A DNA stretch of 56,587 nt from a virus (taxonomy: Duplodnaviria; Caudoviricetes). Location: IMG/VR virus record IMGVR_UViG_3300047198_000034, positions 1 to 56,587 of that record; one strand, 5' to 3'. The notes under the pieces were generated by a model. It was not told the origin of the DNA and ran no database searches. It worked only from the letters and a program-made list of their open reading frames with translations. Shown one piece after another: positions 1 to 52,040 of this stretch; positions within the stretch are counted from its first letter, which is position 1; the number at the start of each line of letters is the position of its first letter. The position numbers were made by a program, and so were the translations under genes.

Positions 1-413
1 TTTTTCAATCTCATTCGGTTCTCTTCCCATTCAATAGCCCGTTCCCTTTTATCTTGTTCTTCACGTTCTTTTAAATGCTGCTTGAACTCTGTCAAAATCT
101 CTTTCGCTTCCTGTTTTGAGGGAGTCCATTCTATTTTCTTTAGATCAAATTCTCTTGTGGTTTTTTCTAAATATTTCTTATTTTCCCTTTCCTTAATAAA
201 TTCAATTATGTCATTTGGTCGTGGAAAATATTTTAATTCTCTTCTTGCCCATTTAAAGGCTTCCTCAACTTTTTCTATTGAGTAAGATTCAAGTTCTTCC
301 CAAAAAACCTGGGTTCTTAAAACCTCTTCGTCTTCTTCTAAATTAACGCTCGGAAGACAAACTTTTGTTTTTGCCATTTCCAATAAGAATTTGCTCTTGT
401 CTTCGGGTTTCAT
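1..413 (-). CDS. Replication-associated protein downstream of the initiator (helicase loader/inhibitor-like); runs off the window start
   Basis: Not in the ORF track; my translation MKPEDKSKFLLEMAK...FWEELESYSIEKVEEAFKWARRELKYFPRPNDIIEFI; if circular it ends ...MRLKNC* at 56581-56583. Confidence 0.6.
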   Translation of the reverse strand, partial: MKPEDKSKFLLEMAKTKVCLPSVNLEEDEEVLRTQVFWEELESYSIEKVEEAFKWARRELKYFPRPNDIIEFIKERENKKYLEKTTREFDLKKIEWTPSKQEAKEILTEFKQHLKEREEQDKRERAIEWEENRMRLK

Positions 414-1128
414 CTTTCTCCTCTTGCATTTTTAACCATTTTTTTTCTGCTCCAAATCCTTTTATTTGGGGATGAAGTGGTTCATCTTCCCATCTTTCCT
501 GATTCAACCAAGTTGCTGGATGAGGGATAAATTGACCTCCGTCCTTTTGCCATTGCTCTGTTTGTTTAAAGAGTTCTATTTTATCAACCATCTTTTTAAG
601 AAGAGTGTCATCAGGTTTAATTTTTCTCCACATCTTAAAGGCGTATCCTTTCCCTATTTTCTTTGGATATATTTTCCAAAAAACATTAAATGATGATAAG
701 AGGGAGTCAGGATATGGGGAGTCAGGAGTCAAGGAATGGGGATATGGGGAGTCAGGGGTTTTTACACCAAATGAACCACGTGTCTTTTTGGTGTTTTTAT
801 GGTGTTCATTAGGACTTGGTATGGTACTATCCGATTCTTTTATATGAGGACTTTGATGTTTTGTAAAATTTATAATTTCAATGTATTTACAACCATTTAC
901 TTCATATCTGTTTATAAATTCGGTTTGCATCAAATCTCCTAATAAGATATCTACATCGCAATCATCATAAGGTAATACTTCGGCTTTAATTCTTTTAGGT
1001 CTATCTTCAAGTCTTCCACTTCTATCTGCAAGACACCACAATCCAGCAAATAAAATACGTGTAGTTGGTTGTATAGAACATAAAATCTCATTTTTAAAGA
1101 ATCCTGGTTTAAGATTCCTTGCTCTCAC
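343..1128 (-). CDS. Phage replication initiator (replisome organizer)
   Basis: N-terminal RARNLKPGFF...LFAGLWCLADRSGRLEDRPKRIK and C-terminal FWKIYPKK...FIPHPATWLNQERWEDE motifs typical of phage initiators. Confidence 0.85.
   Translation of the reverse strand: MRARNLKPGFFKNEILCSIQPTTRILFAGLWCLADRSGRLEDRPKRIKAEVLPYDDCDVDILLGDLMQTEFINRYEVNGCKYIEIINFTKHQSPHIKESDSTIPSPNEHHKNTKKTRGSFGVKTPDSPYPHSLTPDSPYPDSLLSSFNVFWKIYPKKIGKGYAFKMWRKIKPDDTLLKKMVDKIELFKQTEQWQKDGGQFIPHPATWLNQERWEDEPLHPQIKGFGAEKKWLKMQEEKDETRRQEQILIGNGKNKSLSSER
702..756. repeat. Candidate origin iterons inside the initiator gene
   Basis: GGATATGGGGAGTCAGG at 710-726 and 740-756; GGGAGTCAGG three times; in the linker of the initiator, as for the lambda O origin. 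Confidence 0.55.
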
Positions 1129-1294: not shown

Positions 1295-1977
1295 GCGATT
1301 TTTTCAGTCATCTTCTGAGGTTCAGGAACATCCAATGAGTCAGATTCCATCTGAATATATTGACGGTAAGCATTGTCTTCCGATAAATTCTTATCATTTT
1401 GGTCTGCAACAAGAAATTCATCCAACGTACTTAAATGTGTTGCGATTTGCCAAAATTCCTTTACGAGCCTTTTAATCTCTGTCATGATTTCATCATGCCG
1501 TTTATTAAGATATTCTACATATCTTCCGGTAATATCGACGAAGGTTAAATTTTCCGGTATCTCAAAAACTTTATATTTAGGGACTTCGACTAATTCAGTT
1601 TGTATGGCTTTAATCGGCATATTCTTAATTGGTTTTGGTTTCATTTTTCCCAATTCCCTTTTACCCCTACTCTTTATAAGAGCTCGATTCTTCAGTTCTG
1701 CCTTTTCTTCCTCCGTGAGATTCTCATTCCTGATCCGTGCGATCGTTCCCTTAGCTACGCCCGTTTTTTTGACGATCTCCCTCACGGAATGAGTTCTCAA
1801 AAGGGCCTTGACTTTTTCTTCTTTTTCTGGCTTCAGGTAATTTGGCATAGTCTCCTCATCGATGGCTTCCGGCTTTACTTCCCTTCCGCACATGTGGCAT
1901 ACATTCCTTGCTGGGTAAATGGCGTATGCTGGATGGTGTATGATTAATCCTCCGCAGTGTCGGTATGGGCATTTCAA
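1291..1977 (-). CDS. HTH DNA-binding protein with N-terminal Cys-rich segment
   Basis: CPYRHC...CHMC; HSVREIVKKTGVAKGTIARIR helix-turn-helix. Confidence 0.55.
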   Translation of the reverse strand: MKCPYRHCGGLIIHHPAYAIYPARNVCHMCGREVKPEAIDEETMPNYLKPEKEEKVKALLRTHSVREIVKKTGVAKGTIARIRNENLTEEEKAELKNRALIKSRGKRELGKMKPKPIKNMPIKAIQTELVEVPKYKVFEIPENLTFVDITGRYVEYLNKRHDEIMTEIKRLVKEFWQIATHLSTLDEFLVADQNDKNLSEDNAYRQYIQMESDSLDVPEPQKMTEKIA

Positions 1978-3977
1978 TGGTCACTCCATTTTTCAAAGCA
2001 TAGAACCTCTTCATAATCTATTCTCGGAGCCCCCTTCGACTCAGCCAGTCTTCTAAAGAACGACTTTCTCTCAACGGATATTTCCTCATCCTCTCCGGTG
2101 ATGGTGATTTGTTTTCCAAATGATTTGACCAACATCGCTTTGTGACGACAGACAAGTTTAAATCCTACACTTTCACAAAGGGTTTTCCATCTTCCTGGAA
2201 AATCAACGATGGCCCCTTTTTTACAATATGATTTCGTTACCCAGATCGCATGGCCCCCAGGCTTTAAAAGTTTATAGCATTGTTCAAGGATGATCCGGGA
2301 GGCTGACCAGAAAGTGTCGGGTGGGACATTACCTAAATTGCCTTGATCTCTTTGGGTAGGCCAATAGTTGCGCGGTTCTCCTGAATAATTAGTTAATCCC
2401 TTATACCCATTTCGAGATGATCCACCATCTTGCCGAATATCTGAATATGGTGGGCTACTCACCACGGCATCGAAGGAGCCTTCGGGCATCTTGCCAAGTT
2501 GGCCAAGGGAATCAGGATATCCTGTCCATTTATGAGTCATTTTAATAAGTGCTTTATCACTTCTACCAGGATGAGATTTACGTTGACCTTCTATAAATTT
2601 CTGTCTTTCTTCATCAGTCATCGGCTTATCGGTAGATGTTTCCGCATACGGTGGTGACGAGCATATCAAATCGAAATCCCCTTCTTTTAATGAACCGAGT
2701 TGGCCTTCGGAGGATCCATAATCTTGACTATGAAGTTCTTGAGTTCGACAAAAAGCCTCGAATGAAGCACCACCACCTTGAGATCGGTAGGTTTTATATT
2801 GCTTCTTACGATCAATGGAAGGACTATTCTTTTGGATAGACTGTTCAGCGTAGGGAGGTGATCCCACCACCAGCTCAAACTTCCCCTCTTTGAGATTGGC
2901 AAGAGAAGATTTCCAGATTTTTTTATGAATGATTTGACCTATAACGTTGTGGCTTACCCCATATTCCTTCGCTAAGATTGAATAGCTTGTATTCCCTTTT
3001 GAATATTTTTCTCTAATCTCTGTAACCTGCACTTCCGTTAATTTAGCCCTACCATGATTCTCACCCTTTGCCTGATGAAGATGTTTATTGAAAATTGGAT
3101 TTCTGCCTTTATCAGAAGAGTCCTGCCAATTATCCTGCATTGTTCCGAGGAATAAATGGTCTGGTCTAACGCACCCTGGATTGTCACAATGATGACAAAC
3201 CATTAAGCCTTCAGGAATAGGACCAAAATGGATTTCCCATGAAATACGATGGGCAGAGATTTCTTTTCCATCTATTAAAATCCTTCCATATCCTTTATTC
3301 TGTTTTTTACCTTTCCATTCCCAACAGGCATCCGCCTTTATAACTTTTGCCCAAAATCTATTTTCAAGATCAGAAAGTAAAAAGTGTTCAAAATTACCCT
3401 CCTTCAAATTTGCTAAGTTGCCAGGGGTGTGACCATAGCCGTCCTGCATGGCATCAAGGTTTCTATCGTCCTTCCGGCCACCCTTCCTTGTTGGTGTACC
3501 TCCGTGACCCAATCCTTCATGATATGGTGGACTCGATACCACCAAATCCGCTTGGTTTAGAGTCCCACGCAGCCCCGACTTTGCAATATCAGAGGGTCCC
3601 AAGTTACGGGCATTCCACATCACCTCCCTTAAATTTCTCGAATCCCCCTGCACAATCCTTGCCGTTCCAAGGTTAGGCCAACCCTTGAGTTGACGGTTCC
3701 AGAGGTCGATGTTCTGCTGGCCAAGGGAGACAAACTTTTCCTCAAGTTCAACAGCCAAAAAGTTTAGGCCGTGGCACATGGCATGAAAACCAAAGCCACA
3801 GATTCCGCCAAAGGGATCAAGGACATAATCCCCCCGCTTTACCCATCCCATGTTAATCGCATGGTCGTAAATCTTGCCGGCAAGGGAGAAGGATACCTTG
3901 GCCGGATGACTGAAAGCCTCTGGTACAAGATTCTTACCCCATGGAATTGAATAACAATTTTCCCAAATATCGGTCAT
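1974..3977 (-). CDS. Amino (N4-C/N6-A) DNA methyltransferase with four SPPY modules and an in-frame HNH endonuclease domain
   Basis: SAM-binding VLDPFGGICGFG; SPPY x4; HNH CWEWKG...AHRISW...VCHHCDNPGCVRPDHLFLGT..DN. Confidence 0.85.
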   Translation of the reverse strand: MTDIWENCYSIPWGKNLVPEAFSHPAKVSFSLAGKIYDHAINMGWVKRGDYVLDPFGGICGFGFHAMCHGLNFLAVELEEKFVSLGQQNIDLWNRQLKGWPNLGTARIVQGDSRNLREVMWNARNLGPSDIAKSGLRGTLNQADLVVSSPPYHEGLGHGGTPTRKGGRKDDRNLDAMQDGYGHTPGNLANLKEGNFEHFLLSDLENRFWAKVIKADACWEWKGKKQNKGYGRILIDGKEISAHRISWEIHFGPIPEGLMVCHHCDNPGCVRPDHLFLGTMQDNWQDSSDKGRNPIFNKHLHQAKGENHGRAKLTEVQVTEIREKYSKGNTSYSILAKEYGVSHNVIGQIIHKKIWKSSLANLKEGKFELVVGSPPYAEQSIQKNSPSIDRKKQYKTYRSQGGGASFEAFCRTQELHSQDYGSSEGQLGSLKEGDFDLICSSPPYAETSTDKPMTDEERQKFIEGQRKSHPGRSDKALIKMTHKWTGYPDSLGQLGKMPEGSFDAVVSSPPYSDIRQDGGSSRNGYKGLTNYSGEPRNYWPTQRDQGNLGNVPPDTFWSASRIILEQCYKLLKPGGHAIWVTKSYCKKGAIVDFPGRWKTLCESVGFKLVCRHKAMLVKSFGKQITITGEDEEISVERKSFFRRLAESKGAPRIDYEEVLCFEKWSDH

Positions 3978-10825: not shown

Positions 10826-11581
10826 TTAAATTAAAAGTCCCTCAAGATTTTCCAAGAGTTGTTTGATTGCCTGTTTCGGAGTATCCTTCCATTGATTTTT
10901 TCTTGCTCTTCTTACGGCTTCATAAAATGCTTCAAAGGTTTTTTTGATTTCATCATTTACCTTTTCGATTGCTAAGGGTTTCGTTTGAATAATTGGTTTT
11001 TTGGGTTTTGGATTTCTGGTTGCTTTAAAAGCCTTATTGACCGACATCTCTCCCTTTCTTACGGCCTGTTTAATCTCTTCCGTAGCCTCCTTCTCAATGA
11101 TCTCTGATTTACGAATTGTATCATGTGAGACACCAGCGATCCTTGCAATCTCTTCACGGGTCTCACCCTCCGCAGATTTCTGCGTAGGGTCGGCCTTACC
11201 TACTTTCATTCTTTTTTCTGCCTTTTCCTCAATAACTGGTTTTAAAAGAAGTGCGAGTCTGGCTCTCTCGTGTGGAGGTAAATTGCGGCGGGCAAGTTGG
11301 TTCTTAATAATCCAAATCTTAGCCTCTTCTTCGCTATCAAATTCCTTCTCCAATATTTTGAATCCAATATTATGCTTGTGGCAGATTTCGTATCGGTTAT
11401 ACCCGTCAATAATGGAACCATTCCATGTGATAATCGCCTCCCGACATCCCTCCTGCAATATGCTCTGTTCAAGCAATTGATATTCGTCAGAAGAAATCGA
11501 TGGAATGATATTATGAAATTCAGGATTGATTTGAAGTTCCATTAACATTTTATTAATCACCTCGTTAGATTTTTCAGTCAT
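10826..11581 (-). CDS. ParB-like N-terminal domain plus HTH protein
   Basis: INPEF..IIP...EYQLLEQSILQEG...IIDGYNRYEIC...NQLARRNL; TREEIARIAGVSHDTI. Confidence 0.75.
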   Translation of the reverse strand: MTEKSNEVINKMLMELQINPEFHNIIPSISSDEYQLLEQSILQEGCREAIITWNGSIIDGYNRYEICHKHNIGFKILEKEFDSEEEAKIWIIKNQLARRNLPPHERARLALLLKPVIEEKAEKRMKVGKADPTQKSAEGETREEIARIAGVSHDTIRKSEIIEKEATEEIKQAVRKGEMSVNKAFKATRNPKPKKPIIQTKPLAIEKVNDEIKKTFEAFYEAVRRARKNQWKDTPKQAIKQLLENLEGLLI

Positions 11582-13328: not shown

Positions 13329-13952
13329 ATGAGAAATAATTACAATCATTGTAGGATGTGGGGGTTCGATGAAAGGCTGAATGAGAGAATTGGAATTGAA
13401 CTAAAAAGGAAACGGAAATCCACTGGAATGAGTCAGCAAGAATTAGCCGAAAAAGTGAAAACAACACAGGCCACAATATCAAGAATTGAAAGAGCGGTGG
13501 ATAACATCACAATGACAAAACTTATTAAATACCTTAATGCTCTTAATATACAACTCTTCATTAAATTTCCTCTTAATGGAGATGATAAAATATTCGAAGA
13601 TCATATTCCTACAAGTCAAGATATATATTATCAGACCAGTTTTGAAAAGGGATTATTTATGATTGGCAATGATTATGCAGGTATTGCAATTGAAGGCAAA
13701 AAACAGTTCTTACCGGATTTGGTTAGGTCTCCTTCAGTCGATATGGGATCTCTTTTTGACGAGGCCAGGTCGTCTTTCAAGAATATTTCGAATGATAAGG
13801 CTGGGTCGGAAAATGACACAGGCGCATCTGGCCAGAGCTTTAAACGTGTCAGAGAATTACCTTTATATGGTGGAGAATGCTCAAAAGTTTCCATCATTGT
13901 CTTTTATCCTGAGATTCGGTATAATGTTTTCAATCAATCCAAGGCTGCTTAA
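13329..13952 (+). CDS. XRE-family HTH repressor
   Basis: LKRKRKSTGMSQQELAEKVKTTQATISRIER. Confidence 0.8.
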   Translation: MRNNYNHCRMWGFDERLNERIGIELKRKRKSTGMSQQELAEKVKTTQATISRIERAVDNITMTKLIKYLNALNIQLFIKFPLNGDDKIFEDHIPTSQDIYYQTSFEKGLFMIGNDYAGIAIEGKKQFLPDLVRSPSVDMGSLFDEARSSFKNISNDKAGSENDTGASGQSFKRVRELPLYGGECSKVSIIVFYPEIRYNVFNQSKAA

Positions 13953-47479: not shown

Positions 47480-47842
47480 TCAAGGATTTATCCCCCCCAC
47501 CCTTTGTTCTTTCCCAATCTCATCCTGATGATACTGGGGCATATGACACGAAGCGCATAGACCTTCACCATTATTGAGATCAATATTCCGCCAGTTATTA
47601 TCTTTGTGGTGAGCGACCGTTGATGGAGTTAGAATTCCTTTTCTTAAACAGGCTTGGCATAAGGGATCACGATGTAAAACTGTTTCTCTCCAATATTTAT
47701 GGGCATTAGAAGCATAATAACTATGCTGCTGTTTTTCTTCGGCTGTATTATAGATTTTAGTTTGTTTAGGTTGATGGAGAGGACACCATTTACCGTGGGT
47801 GAGTAGAACAGAGCATCTTGGAGAGGCACATTGATTATACAA
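47480..47842 (-). CDS. Terminase-associated HNH endonuclease (HK97 gp74-like)
   Basis: VLHRDPLCQAC....STVAHH.....N..GLCASCH directly upstream of terL. Confidence 0.8.
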   Translation of the reverse strand: MYNQCASPRCSVLLTHGKWCPLHQPKQTKIYNTAEEKQQHSYYASNAHKYWRETVLHRDPLCQACLRKGILTPSTVAHHKDNNWRNIDLNNGEGLCASCHMPQYHQDEIGKEQRVGGINP

Positions 47843-47992: not shown

Positions 47993-48301
47993 TTAAATTT
48001 GGGGATTTATGATGACTTTTATTCGCTTGATCTCGCTTTCCGGGATAAGATAGCCATCTCGAACCCTGATAATATTCATTAAGAATCCTTCATCAATCCA
48101 TCTATAGATTGTTTTCTCTGTTCGTTTTACTTCCTTTGCCGCCTCTTTTACAGTGAGAGTTTTCAATAAGAGTCTCCTTCGATTTTTATTTTTTATTAAT
48201 CTCGGATCAATCTTTCCATCATGTACAGCAATATAGATTGCCTGCAACTGTTCGCCGAATGTTTTAAATAAAAATGGCTGATTTTCCCCTTTTTTTTTCA
48301 T
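47993..48301 (-). CDS. MerR/excisionase-like HTH DNA-binding protein (possible late regulator)
   Basis: LTVKEAAKEVKRTEKTIYRWIDEG...YLIPESEI. Confidence 0.8.
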   Translation of the reverse strand: MKKKGENQPFLFKTFGEQLQAIYIAVHDGKIDPRLIKNKNRRRLLLKTLTVKEAAKEVKRTEKTIYRWIDEGFLMNIIRVRDGYLIPESEIKRIKVIINPQI

Positions 48302-48414
48302 TATTTTACTTTCTTCTTTAATATCTTCTTAGATTTAATCCCACAGGCTTTACAGATATCTTTCCATCCGCTCAAAATAATCTGCTCTTCAGACATTGAT
48401 CCTCCTAATTCTTA

Positions 48415-48630
48415 TCATTCTGGTATCTCGATTTTAACATTCACAGACTCAAGACCTTGCTCATTCCTAATCACTTTGATGGTAGTGACTTCTATTCCTG
48501 TCTTCTGCTCGAATGCCAGAATCTCATGAAATAATCTGATACTCAATCTTCTTTTCTCATCTGCCAGTTCTTTAAGGTCCATGGTTGATTCCTCCTTTCG
48601 AATTGTCTTTTTTATTTTTTCACCTTTCAT
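48415..48630 (-). CDS. Small hypothetical protein
   Basis: Likely start MDLKEL with RBS AAGGAGG. Confidence 0.5.
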   Translation of the reverse strand: MKGEKIKKTIRKEESTMDLKELADEKRRLSIRLFHEILAFEQKTGIEVTTIKVIRNEQGLESVNVKIEIPE

Positions 48631-48631
48631 T

Positions 48632-48655
48632 TGGCGGTCTAACCACCTACCGCCA
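48632..48655 (-). terminator. Hairpin at the 3' end of the last TIGR array
   Basis: TGGCGGT (48632-38) / ACCGCCA (48649-55); no U-tract, so possibly a stability or processing stem. Confidence 0.4.
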
Positions 48656-48657
48656 GG

Positions 48658-48920
48658 GATTTCGCATTGTACCCATGGATTTCAACATTTCAATTGCTCG
48701 CACGAACTCTTTAGATTTCAGATCAACTTTCGCTCGCATATAATTCCTGGGTTTCAGGTCATTCATCGCTCGCATTACCTGGCTGGGTTTCAAGATTTCC
48801 CTCGCTCGCATCCTCTTCCTTGGGTTTCAATAACTGGCTCGCTCGCACACTATCTTTGGATTTCAGCCTCTCCATCGCTCGCATCTTTTTTTTGGATTTC
48901 ACTGGGACCCTCGCTTCACA
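48658..48920 (-). ncRNA. TIGR-type dual-repeat guide array 3 (7 units)
   Basis: 36-nt period: TGCGAGCGA-N9-TGAAA(C/T)CCA-N9 on the minus strand; unique spacers; one 10-nt spacer. Confidence 0.9.
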
Positions 48921-48923
48921 TTT

Positions 48924-49568
48924 TTACAATAGAGCAGATCGTTGTATTGTGCTGTTTGGCTTATCGAACATCTTCCTTATGGTGATTGCCACCTGTGCCG
49001 TAATCTTGAGCTTTTCAATCTGCTCATTGAGTTCCTTAACCTTTTTTACGGCGACTTGAAGAGCTTCTTTTGTATGATCATGGGCCAGCTTTTCATTCTC
49101 ATACATACTCTTCCAATCCGTAATTTCCTTTTTAATTTTAGGTATTGGCCAATGCTTCTGGATGATGGCCTCCATCTTAGCTCTGGACAGGGGCATCTTG
49201 TGCGCAATCCCTTCTTGTTGAATCTCTGAAATAACCTTTTCTACTCTCATCCCTCCACATACTCGATCAATCTTTGATACCAAACCGATGCCATACTCAA
49301 GGGCGTATTTGGGGAATTTGGTAAACGCTCTCACATTTTCACGATAGGTTCCTTGGCGAATGGTGAAATTATCCTCAAGATATTCCCAAAAAGAACTCTT
49401 CTTGTATCTTGGATTTTCCTTGAACCGATAAGTTGTTCTTAGATATTCCAAACATTCATACATTTCCTTCTGATTTTCTCTTGATAAGGTGTAAAGTTTC
49501 TTAATCTTGGCTTCCAATTCTGAGATGTTAATTCCATCATATTTATCGTTCTTTTTGATTTCTTCCAT
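48924..49568 (-). CDS. TIGR-embedded uncharacterised protein (helical, C-terminal coiled coil); start adjusted to MEEIKK
   Basis: Flanked on both sides by arrays; RBS AAGGAGG right after the terminal repeat; YKKSSFWEYLEDNFTIRQGTYR HTH-like segment. Confidence 0.75.
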   Translation of the reverse strand: MEEIKKNDKYDGINISELEAKIKKLYTLSRENQKEMYECLEYLRTTYRFKENPRYKKSSFWEYLEDNFTIRQGTYRENVRAFTKFPKYALEYGIGLVSKIDRVCGGMRVEKVISEIQQEGIAHKMPLSRAKMEAIIQKHWPIPKIKKEITDWKSMYENEKLAHDHTKEALQVAVKKVKELNEQIEKLKITAQVAITIRKMFDKPNSTIQRSALL

Positions 49569-49590
49569 TTGAGATCTCCTCCTTTTTTTT

Positions 49591-50103
49591 AGATTCGCAT
49601 TGGTCACCTGGGTTTCATGTCTATAATCGCTCGCACCTTTTTCATGGGTTTCAGAATTGGATTCGCTCGCAATGATCCATTAGGTTTCAGCTTTTTGTTC
49701 GCTCGCATTCCTCATCTGAGTTTCGAATCCGTCATCGCTCGTATTTTTGTTTTGGGTTTCAAGCCGTCCCTCGCTCGCACTATTTTTATGGGGTTCAATA
49801 CTTGACTCGCTCGCAATAAACGATTGGGTTCCAAAGACTCCCTCGCTCGCATTACTTCCGTGGATTTCAGAAATGTTATCGCTCGCAGAGTTATTTTGGG
49901 TTTCAACTTCAACATCGCTCGCAGGGGCCTCCTGGGTTTCAAGACGGTAATCGCTCATCCTCTACACTCTGGCCTCAATACTGGGAGAAGGCGCACTCAG
50001 GACTTGGATTTCAACCTCTTCATCGCTCGCACTAATTTGCTGGATTTCAGGGAGGGGGTCGCTCGCATTTGTTAACTGGGTTTCAATCGTTAACTCGCTC
50101 GCA
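49591..50103 (-). ncRNA. TIGR-type dual-repeat guide array 2 (14 in-phase units, one degenerate)
   Basis: Same repeats; 36-nt phase kept through the degenerate unit at 49951-49995; first units overlap the tas 3' end. Confidence 0.92.
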
Positions 50104-50915
50104 TTCTCCCAATAAAAGGGTTGAATAATGTTCGTATGCCCCATCAAAGCTCCTGTATAAGGTTCTGATACTGTCTTACCCTCAAGAGTCCTTGCAACTG
50201 TCCACCAATGAGCCAGAAATATCTTGACCACTTCATTTTTGGCTGCATTATGAACATGTCCCTTTTCCCATTCAGGATGATTCTTTTGATGCTTCGCCTT
50301 ATGTTGTAAAAGCAGGGCCTTATATGGATGATCATCTTTTTGTCTATTGAATTCCTCACCAATATGAAAACCCACCGTCCGCCCCACCGTTGACCAGTTT
50401 GACAAAGTACCTTTTTTCCGCTTTGGCATAACACCCTCAACTACATGTCTTCCCATATAGGCCCACCATTTTGATATTGTTGGGAAGTCCTTGTACTCCA
50501 ATCGATGCTTCAAAAGACCTTCCTTCGCTGTCTTTCCACAATCAACACATTTTAATTTATGCTCATTCTTTTCCAACTTGCCGCCGCAGTCTTTACAGAC
50601 CGGAATGAATCGATAATAAAACAAAATTATCATTTGGGCTGCAATATAAGGCCCGATTCCTGGTATTTTCTTTGCCCATAATTCCCAAATATCCCATTGC
50701 TTCAACTCCTTTTCAATTTCTCTATTAATCCGACCTTTTACTGTTTCTAATCCTGCCTCTGCCTTTTGTCCCTTTAAAAGCGTATCAAATTTTTCTTCCC
50801 GTTTTTCTCCTGGTAAAGATTGAAGCCTCTGTTTTGTTGATGCAATTAATTGAGTAACCCCTTGATATGTCCTTACCAAAAAATTCAAATATTTTATTCC
50901 CTGTTCGTTTGTCAT
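49962..50915 (-). CDS. tasA: TIGR-associated Nop-domain protein without nuclease (TasA-like), with a Zn-ribbon insertion
   Basis: Coiled coil, then IPGIGPYIAAQMI, FPTISKWWAYMG, PKRKKG...NW, HPYK, GHVHNAA...KIFLAHWW; no N-terminal DEDD RuvC and no HNH motif; flanked by arrays. Confidence 0.82.
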   Translation of the reverse strand: MTNEQGIKYLNFLVRTYQGVTQLIASTKQRLQSLPGEKREEKFDTLLKGQKAEAGLETVKGRINREIEKELKQWDIWELWAKKIPGIGPYIAAQMIILFYYRFIPVCKDCGGKLEKNEHKLKCVDCGKTAKEGLLKHRLEYKDFPTISKWWAYMGRHVVEGVMPKRKKGTLSNWSTVGRTVGFHIGEEFNRQKDDHPYKALLLQHKAKHQKNHPEWEKGHVHNAAKNEVVKIFLAHWWTVARTLEGKTVSEPYTGALMGHTNIIQPFYWENASELTIETQLTNASDPLPEIQQISASDEEVEIQVLSAPSPSIEARV

Positions 50916-50934
50916 CTCGACACCTCCTTTTTTT

Positions 50935-51105
50935 AAATTCGCATCTCTTGCTTGGGTTTCAACCTGACGGTCGCTCGCATAATGTTCCTGGGTTTCAGCA
51001 CGCCCATCGCTCGCATTGTATTTGTGGGTTTCAAAAAGCCGATCGCTCGCATTAGGATATTGGGTTTCAAGCCGATTATCGCTCGCATATTGCTTCTGGA
51101 TTTTA
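50935..51105 (-). ncRNA. TIGR-type dual-repeat guide array 1 (4 full units plus a partial)
   Basis: Same repeats, directly upstream of the tas RBS. Confidence 0.9.
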
Positions 51106-51318
51106 TTGGCTTTTTAGATTTCTACATATTATCACACTAACCGTTTCATCACCTCCCCACCGCCCGGCATCAAGAATATTAGGATTTTCAGTTTCCAAAA
51201 GAATACGATAGGATTTATCCAAACTCACAAGTGACTTTGCCCGTATTTCCTTAATCACTCCGATAAATTCAATCTTTTCATTCATGATCGTTTTCTCCTT
51301 ACCAATATTTAATAACAA
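51103..51318 (-). CDS. Small hypothetical protein
   Basis: Likely start MNEKIEF; its stop lies in the first degenerate array repeat. Confidence 0.5.
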   Translation of the reverse strand: MLLNIGKEKTIMNEKIEFIGVIKEIRAKSLVSLDKSYRILLETENPNILDAGRWGGDETVSVIICRNLKSQ

Positions 51319-51422
51319 AATGACCCGTGATATAAATCATTGTTACCCAAAACAAAAAAGTGATTCCAATTAAAATTGCTAAAATAAGGCTATTTTTCAT
51401 CTTCTCATTTCTCTCTCTTGGA

Positions 51423-52040
51423 TTATTTTTTTAACAAATAACCTATTTCTTTAATCCCATAAAATAATAGGATCTCGGCAGCCTTCATTAAATCAAAAAT
51501 ATTGATCGCCATCTTTGGAGTTACTTCCAGCTCGAATTTGACAGTATCATCGCCATAGGCTTCGATTCGGGGTCCCAATCCTTTAATTAGATCGTAAACA
51601 TAAATCGAAGGTTCTTGATTATCTTCTTTAAATTCAACCCGAAAATAATCGGCTAACTTTTGAATATTAGCTCTTCTTTTTAGGTGATAATCATTCGATT
51701 GTTTAACCTGATTGATGGCCTTTTCGAGTTCAGGCAGATAAACAGGCAAGAACCGTCTTTCGATATCCCTCGCTATTTGCTCAGAACTTTTGGTAACAGA
51801 GACATAGATTGAGGATTTAGATTCATAACAGCCAGATTCCCCCCTTATGGATGTCGGGAAATCGCCAGTAATATGAACTTTCTGCTCAGTAGCGATGGAA
51901 ATCCTGATCTTCTGATATTCCTTGATTAGATGTGCCCATCTTTGCCATTTCATATCCTCATCTGATGGGAATTCTACGCTCATTTTTAGGATAATGGCAA
52001 CTTGACCTATTTTATTTTTAAATTCTTGAGTTTCCATCAT
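51423..52040 (-). CDS. Hypothetical phage protein
   Basis: 205-aa ORF with RBS. Confidence 0.6.
   Translation of the reverse strand: MMETQEFKNKIGQVAIILKMSVEFPSDEDMKWQRWAHLIKEYQKIRISIATEQKVHITGDFPTSIRGESGCYESKSSIYVSVTKSSEQIARDIERRFLPVYLPELEKAINQVKQSNDYHLKRRANIQKLADYFRVEFKEDNQEPSIYVYDLIKGLGPRIEAYGDDTVKFELEVTPKMAINIFDLMKAAEILLFYGIKEIGYLLKK

Follow-up and report, generated by a model that had tools for sequence, protein, structure and literature searches.

A predicted zinc-ribbon insert and a linked partner gene mark a clade of nuclease-less TasA proteins in a phage TIGR locus

What could an RNA-guided protein do that has no nuclease and carries a four-cysteine module absent from its characterised relatives? 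The tasA locus of a tailed phage (IMG/VR record IMGVR_UViG_3300047198_000034) raises this question; the window analysed here is the entire 56.6-kb phage genome record (56,587 nucleotides). An initial annotation of the window had described one of its reading frames as a TasA-class protein that starts at a coiled coil without a RuvC domain, has no HNH motif, and carries a CxxC...CxxC insert after its GIGP helix, possibly as a distinct subtype. TasA is the commonest and least understood Tas effector, according to the discussion of Faure 2025 (PMC12045711), and its role as a transcriptional repressor was shown only recently (Xu 2026 preprint). Our analysis indicates that the locus is probably a dual-repeat TIGR-TasA system. 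The insert, predicted to be a zinc ribbon, marks a separate clade of TasA, and this clade is co-distributed with one partner gene.

TasA is a Tas protein without a nuclease domain

The closest matches of the protein among solved structures are Tas proteins, with 9mty_A (TaTasR) first in a phmmer search (E-value 7.6e-25) and TasH next (1.3e-5). A profile of 112 homologues lifts these matches to 2.8e-38 for TaTasR and 5e-11 for SpTasH. The AlphaFold2 model built from the same 112-homologue alignment (mean predicted local distance difference test score, pLDDT, 85; predicted template modelling score, pTM, 0.81) tells a similar story: its ten best Foldseek matches in the PDB are all TasR or TasH chains (8e-11 to 1e-5; SpTasH 3e-7), and the recombinases IS621 and ISCro4 rank after them (E 0.07-0.15). 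By sequence and fold, the protein has the two parts that characterise Tas proteins, a coiled-coil dimerisation region and, after it, a Nop-type RNA-binding domain. The NCBIfam model TIGR_Tas_endo gives 98.9 bits (4e-28), 1.1 short of its cut-off of 100.

The alignment to TaTasR starts at TasR residue 156, with the RuvC part unmatched, and the first modelled element of TasA is the helix 4-33, with no domain ahead of the coiled coil. As TaTasR residues 1-155 have no counterpart and the model starts at this helix, we conclude that TasA has no RuvC or HNH domain. The Pfam scan of the protein found no family at all, neither HNH nor RuvC. The short N-terminus is common to the homologues, and the lack of a nuclease domain defines the TasA subclass. 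The initial annotation was thus right about the start at the coiled coil, the missing HNH, and the TasA class, for which the best matches by sequence and fold (TaTasR and SpTasH), the missing nuclease domain, and the 36-nt arrays on both sides of the gene all speak.

Comparison with the two solved relatives shows what is shared and what is not. TaTasR (9MTY), the closest solved structure, shares the coiled coil, the helix-hairpin-helix (HhH) helix, the wedge loop (KRKKG), and the C-terminal helices; it differs by its N-terminal RuvC nuclease of ~108 residues and by having only 6 residues at the site of the insert. SpTasH (9W03, 9W04, 21KL) shares the Nop domain and the Y/H processing dyad (see below), and differs by its N-terminal HNH nuclease, by 9 residues at the insert site, and by a beta hairpin (T240/Q241) placed elsewhere.

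Could the reading frame instead be an N-terminally truncated, decaying transposase of the IS110 family? PHROG 4285, labelled 'transposase', matches it at 1.5e-21, and the PDB depositors named TaTasR an IS116/IS110/IS902 C-terminal-domain protein. Yet start, length, and architecture are shared by more than 100 homologues, a strong ribosome-binding site (AGGAGG, 8 nt 5' of the ATG) and flanking arrays accompany the gene, and the Tas structures match far better than IS621. IS110 transposases are recognised by an N-terminal DEDD RuvC-like domain and the Pfam family Transposase_20; TasA has no DEDD domain and no match to a Pfam transposase family, even at E<=10. IS621 (8WT6/8WT9) is distantly alike in its coiled coil and RNA-binding domain (Foldseek E 0.09-0.15, template modelling score ~0.43), and arrays here take the place of the transposon ends of IS110-family recombinases. 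Decay from a transposase is therefore scarcely credible.

Dual-repeat TIGR arrays flank and enter tasA

The arrays lie on the same strand as tasA (minus; Table 1). Each 36-nt unit consists of an edge repeat UGCGAGCGA, a 9-nt spacer A, a loop repeat UGAAACCCA, and a 9-nt spacer B, i.e., the alternating 8-12-nt repeats, ~9-nt spacers, and 36-nt units of TIGR arrays. A plus-strand search for TCGCTCGCA that allowed up to one mismatch gave 26 matches (5.07 expected), 22 of them in exact 36-nt register, in three blocks that flank tasA on both sides. We fetched a first set of 39 related viral-contig loci with the TasA profile, and the 36-nt period is found in all of them. In TIGR arrays, each of the two repeats has UG (box D) at its start and CCA (box C) at its end, and the two covary, as described in the text of Faure 2025 (PMC12045711). 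Both repeats of the phage start with UG and the loop repeat ends with CCA, as do the repeats of TaTasR. Related loci carry the same repeats on the tas strand with ends that vary between CGA, CCA, and CUA: the edge repeat ends with CCA in many relatives, and both repeats end with CUA in three loci (L019, L020, L034). We counted the phage repeats as of this covarying kind. No Rfam family was found in 48300-51400 at E<=1.

In order of transcription, the locus consists of four units, tasA with three internal units, a degenerate unit, ten units, the gene of a 214-residue protein, and six units. The truncated edge UGCGAA of the first array runs directly into the ribosome-binding site of tasA. The degenerate unit encodes the ...APSPSIEARV terminus of TasA and its stop codon, and is followed by one unit with the edge GAUGAGCGA, nine regular units, a truncated edge UGCGAA, and the ribosome-binding site of the partner gene. 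A scan of 48200-51600 found no terminator-like site, and promoter-like sites were at shuffle level. Because two of the arrays run via a truncated edge and A-rich sequence into the AGGAGG of the next gene, with no terminator-like site, we infer that the locus is transcribed as one unit. Among the 12 sequencing runs listed for this DNA, none was an RNA run. The junctions before tasA (50916-50943, minus) and before the partner gene (49569-49599, minus) are of the same make, UGCGAA followed by U(U/C)UAAAAAAA(A)GGAGG, so tigRNA processing would cut the mRNA just upstream of each ribosome-binding site. After the third array follows a GGCGGU(N10)ACCGCC hairpin without a U run (48635-48660, minus), which may mark the 3' end of the locus transcript or a processing site.

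The last ~47 codons of tasA (~271-317) are array sequence, and the corresponding residues are modelled as disordered. Arrays inside tas coding regions have been reported, less often for dual-repeat arrays (Xu 2026 preprint). The last residues of the array-encoded tail (49962-50103, minus), immediately ahead of the stop, form a conserved E-[A/M]-R-[V/A/P/L/I], an ending seen in ~18 of the 120 listed homologues (among the loci, L001, L003, L010, and L011 have it). From locus to locus, the codons vary at their third positions (GAG/GAA, AGA/AGG, GTG/GTA), a hint that selection acts on the tail peptide rather than on the RNA. Other homologues stop in the first, degenerate edge repeat, ending in ...AA or ...VA. 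Several listed open reading frames of 50-134 residues over the arrays (49680-49958, minus; 48581-48985 and others on the plus strand) are pure array sequence, read as 12-residue repeats such as xxASDxxxETQx, and do not merit annotation as genes. Most of 48300-51400 is covered by contigs from four other freshwater-sediment runs, and the array-spanning pieces are identical; no spacer turnover was seen, and the spacer content looks stable across these samples.

A close published relative is FpTasA of Flavonifractor plautii, also a Nop-domain Tas protein that acts solo; its dual-repeat array likewise has 36-nt units with spacers of 9 nt, and it was shown to carry 36-nt tigRNAs (Faure 2025, PMC12045711). 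In contrast to the phage protein, FpTasA has only a short, cysteine-free link between its GxGP helix and the helix that follows (Table S1 of Faure 2025); the text of Faure 2025 names no partner gene for it.

How would the arrays be processed? SpTasH processes its own pre-tigRNA with the catalytic residues Y289 and H296 (PMC13421893). Residues 217-267 of the phage protein align without gaps to TasH 253-303, pairing Y253 and H260 with this dyad, and both residues are invariant in the 112 homologues. The alignment thus points to the Tyr/His self-processing dyad of dual-repeat TIGR-Tas systems in the phage protein.

The four-cysteine insert

The insert lies between the GIGP helix and FPTISKWWAYMG, and its core VCKDCGGKLEKNEHKLKCVDCGK spans residues 105-127 (nucleotides 50535-50603). 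In the profile alignments, positions 98-143 face TaTasR 192-197 and positions 96-145 face SpTasH 158-166. As only 6 and 9 residues face it, the whole insert amounts to ~40 residues; the alignment to TasR and TasH that the initial annotation had proposed therefore does map the insertion. AlphaFold2 models it as four beta strands (101-106, 113-117, 120-123, 136-141) with pLDDT of 90-96. The two knuckles, C107-x2-C110 and C123-x2-C126, sit on a two-stranded beta stalk. The four cysteines and G133 are invariant in the 112-sequence alignment, beyond what chance would give, and several residues flanking the cysteines are invariant or nearly so down to ~40% identity; variation in length is confined to the loop between the two knuckles. 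Searched alone, the insert matches zinc-ribbon proteins weakly (Csl4, E 0.0026; others, E 0.5-2.3). Two CxxC knuckles on beta hairpins that bind one zinc ion are the hallmark of a zinc ribbon, which the insert is accordingly predicted to be.

The ribbon is distinct from the wedge, because it is the segment following WAYMG (GRHVVEGVMPKRKKG), and not the insert, that aligns with the wedge loop of TaTasR (G210-K230 in the methods of the Xu 2026 preprint). In the phmmer alignment, the TasA residues facing this loop are WAYMGRHVVEGVMPKRKKG (151-169). The published scheme of Tas segments names tip, wedge, insertion 1, insertion 2, and CTD5 (Xu 2026 preprint), and the ribbon site is none of these. 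In the same preprint, the core of dual-repeat Tas proteins is called compact and little varied; the ribbon is present in a dual-repeat clade.

Some indication of the place of the ribbon comes from SpTasH, whose K167 and K180, with neighbouring residues, surround the tigRNA's 5' and 3' ends (PMC13421893). K167 aligns to profile position 146 (P145 of the phage protein), two residues past the end of the insert. By this alignment, the base of the ribbon would lie next to the RNA ends, and the ribbon may form a rigid arm on its beta stalk, projecting from beside them. From there it might help to hold nucleic acid on the side of the tigRNA ends, either the flanks of the pre-tigRNA or flanking DNA, a role that we find quite plausible and stop just short of favouring outright. 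A purely structural role, or one in contacts between dimers, seems unlikely. A third role, docking of a partner protein, is weighed with the partner gene below.

A ribbon clade in the Tas family

The ribbon is common among close homologues and rare beyond them. Among the 120 homologues that a word-indexed search listed, 118 carry CxxC...CxxC at this site. When 1.84 billion cluster representatives were searched exhaustively, 1163 relatives appeared at E<=1e-3, 64 of them at E<=1e-30. The strict pattern is present in 54 of these 64; the 10 others are four fragments of 99-178 residues and six sequences with four cysteines at the same site (one is P0211). Among the next-nearest 86 representatives, 82 lack the pattern and 4 match it, three of the latter being fragments of the same clade. 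The ribbon is also absent from TaTasR and SpTasH, and, by their sequences in Table S1 of Faure 2025, from FpTasA and PlTasA. These sequence comparisons support the view that the ribbon marks a separate clade of TasA, made of ~60 clusters at 50% identity.

The site itself tolerates other insertions. Neighbouring TasA clades have inserts of ~25-45 residues there, with other sets of metal ligands or none. In P0241, P0262, and P0267, outside the clade, the inserts offer other possible ligands, e.g., one CxxC and several histidines, which suggests that metal-binding modules may have arisen repeatedly at this site. Other Tas proteins have CxxC pairs elsewhere, at the coiled-coil tip, in the wedge, and after CTD2 (Table S1 of Faure 2025), and many clade-specific insertions have been reported (Xu 2026 preprint). 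All this would fit a ribbon that makes no contacts and simply stabilises the fold at an insertion-tolerant site. Such a scenario sits poorly with the constancy of the four cysteines, G133, and the flanking residues down to ~40% identity, where the inter-knuckle loop alone changes in length, and we think it improbable.

Data S1 of Faure 2025 holds close relatives with the insert trimmed out, such as AF-A0A091G1W5, so the clade is already in the published Tas catalogue. Zinc is not mentioned in the TIGR literature that we searched by term, a search to which the supplementary PDF of Faure 2025, which may mention the ribbon, did not belong. A literature search for tigRNA together with zinc returned only reviews and unrelated work, as judged by titles and abstract openings.

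A partner gene linked to the ribbon clade

The 214-residue partner protein has 39 homologues, and its database twin also begins at the second methionine. In the first set of loci, a hidden Markov model (HMM) of the partner family matches on the tas strand in 34 out of 39, downstream of tas in 33 cases and upstream in one. The partner-negative loci are L028, with no room downstream, L039, with a tas fragment only, and L019, L035, and L036, with no partner within 3.5 kb. All 38 loci that include the region have the four cysteines, 35 in the strict pattern and 3 as a CxC...CxxC variant. For a second set, we searched with a profile of TasA relatives that lack the ribbon and fetched 80 loci. The ribbon is present in three of them (one on the same contig as L036), and the partner HMM matches in two of these three versus none of the 77 ribbon-less loci. 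With both sets pooled, the partner accompanies 36 of the 42 TasA loci of the ribbon clade versus 0 of the 77 others. The suggestion of a distinct subtype in the initial annotation is borne out to this extent: the ribbon marks a separate clade, whose distribution goes together with that of one partner gene. With its constant extra module, a predicted zinc ribbon, and its constant partner gene, this clade points to TasA systems whose tasks go beyond occupying DNA, and provides a clean handle for testing such roles.

What the partner does is harder to read from its model, which is all-helical (pLDDT 87) and has a long C-terminal helix of 50 residues (152-201). Its residues ~25-143 match the DNA-binding domain of ParB weakly by fold (6s6h_B, Z 5.9, root-mean-square deviation (rmsd) 3.3 over 96 residues; 6sdk_A, Z 6.5, rmsd 3.1 over 97 residues), both Z scores being within the inconclusive range of the tool for helical models. 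Beyond coiled-coil noise, the protein has no match in Pfam, NCBIfam, PHROG, or the PDB sequences, and hhalign does not relate it to the canonical ParB-like protein that the phage itself encodes (probability 0.14%). Atlas links it to the clusters DUF3102 and Plasmid_parti_N (0.92, 163-164 shared features), which is a lead only. ParB/Srx CTPase domains contain beta strands, and the partner model has none of the kind expected for them.

The locus matches the layout of the tasA-tasParB operons, where a ParB-like gene shares an operon with tasA and dual-repeat arrays lie upstream, between, and downstream, and where the partner is predicted to dimerise C-terminally; the comparison is with the text of Faure 2025 (PMC12045711) and not with its fig. 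S14. The long C-terminal helix of the phage partner is another likeness. The published operons differ by their 10-nt repeats (9 nt here) and by their HHpred matches to ParB CTPases (Faure 2025).

These observations bear on whether the ribbon is a docking site for the partner, in which case the guide would find the site and a dimeric, ParB helix-turn-helix (HTH)-like partner would be the effector, by silencing, bridging, or tethering. The co-distribution in both sets of loci favours docking, as do the tasA-tasParB precedent and the arrangement of tasA and the partner gene on one strand, with arrays between them and the common junction UGCGAAUYUAAAAAAAGGAGG. So do ten pairs of partner and TasA homologues in which the longest listed contigs have identical size. 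On the other hand, ribbon and partner may simply mark one clade, three loci (L019, L035, L036) have the ribbon and no partner within 3.5 kb, and the likeness of the partner to ParB is weak and without sequence support. We regard docking as a real possibility and lean somewhat against it. A complex prediction of TasA residues 1-275 with the partner scored 0.00, without controls, and is evidence neither way.

A further step would be to see in ribbon and partner the mark of a two-protein TIGR subtype, in which a TasA dimer, programmed by its guide, would use the ribbon to recruit a dimer of the ParB-HTH-like partner to the selected DNA site or load it there; we hold this to be doubtful. If true, foreign or host DNA would be silenced, bridged, or tethered under RNA guidance, rather than just blocked sterically. 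In such a subtype, guide maturation would cut the mRNA, as tigRNA units lie between and inside both genes on one transcript, and could thereby set the ratio of the two proteins.

Proposed mode of action

We consider it likely that the locus is a dual-repeat TIGR-TasA system of a tailed phage in which TasA is a self-processing, non-cleaving, RNA-guided DNA binder or repressor, because the dyad is conserved, no nuclease is present, and repression by TasA is known in relatives: guide-controlled repression of transcription by TasA proteins has been demonstrated (Xu 2026 preprint). By analogy with the characterised relatives, TasA would dimerise through its coiled coil, cut the long transcript into 36-nt tigRNAs with Y253 and H260, and bind one tigRNA per dimer. 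The two 9-nt spacers would then pair with opposite strands of an 18-bp DNA site. Lacking a nuclease, TasA would stay bound and obstruct transcription or replication, either of a competing element or of host DNA.

Several observations weigh against this interpretation or against parts of it. The 23 tigRNAs of the window have no match in the 56.6-kb phage genome at up to 2 mismatches in two spacer geometries. Searches with the 222 tigRNAs of the related loci against the window, and with the tigRNAs of the window against those loci, gave 1 and 2 hits, all with 2 mismatches, where we estimate ~1 by chance. The edge repeat ends with CGA, not with the CCA of TasR arrays. The placement of the ribbon rests on sequence alignment, and K167A of SpTasH was the only mutant to show no processing defect (PMC13421893), so nearness to the RNA ends does not show function. 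Finally, many of the counted loci are near-identical (e.g., L011-L016), and ribbon and partner are both clade traits that could be co-distributed by shared descent alone. With near-duplicate loci and two traits that follow one clade, the co-distribution shows linkage, not dependence.

DNA might still be cut by a nuclease recruited in trans, from the host or the phage. Nothing direct speaks for this; an HNH gene (47480-47842; Pfam HNH, E 0.0034) lies ~2 kb downstream. However, it adjoins the large terminase gene, the usual place of packaging-associated HNH genes, and the neighbour kept across loci is the helical partner, without a match to a nuclease family. Recruitment of a nuclease is thus very improbable, and a non-cleaving TasA remains the preferred reading. 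PADLOC found no match for TasA or for the partner protein.

Genomic context in the phage

The features of the locus are collected in Table 1.

Table 1. Features of the TIGR-TasA locus, with positions in the 56.6-kb window
Feature	Position	Strand	Remarks
Upstream TIGR array	50938..51103	minus	Partial leading unit, four 36-nt units, 3'-truncated edge UGCGAA
tasA	49962..50915	minus	317 aa, ATG start; array-encoded tail included
TasA domains			Coiled coil aa ~4-71; Nop-type C-terminal domain aa ~75-270; disordered array-encoded tail aa ~271-317
Four-cysteine insert (predicted zinc ribbon), aa ~99-143	50487..50621	minus	Conservation, AlphaFold2, profile alignment
Candidate tigRNA-processing dyad Y253...H260	50136..50159	minus	Alignment to SpTasH and conservation
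Three complete tigRNA units inside the 3' end of the tasA reading frame	49996..50103	minus
Array continuation in 36-nt register	49594..49995	minus	Ten further units after a degenerate one
Conserved partner gene, 214 aa	48924..49568	minus	Between two arrays; second-ATG start, AGGAGG upstream
Third TIGR array	48661..48902	minus	Incomplete first unit, then six units (one-base repeat variants in two), truncated edge UGCGAA

The window encodes the genes of a tailed phage: replication initiator, exonucleases, canonical ParB-like protein, repressor, endolysin, tail genes, tape measure, major head protein, portal, large terminase, and RusA. Placed between the packaging module and the RusA-side genes, the TIGR locus shares its strand with most of the phage genes: 69 of the 82 selected open reading frames are on it. 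Searches of cultured phages with tblastn returned two weak partial matches only. None of the 42 phage proteins scanned matched an integrase family, and the phage is perhaps a prophage that resembles a plasmid. The canonical ParB-like partition gene (PHROG 4715, 2.4e-11) is at 10826-11581 (minus), with the initiator at 343-1128 (minus) and the repressor at 13329-13952 (plus). A protein of 667 residues (1974-3977, minus) has HNH endonuclease matches at residues ~203-364 and DNA methyltransferase matches at both ends.

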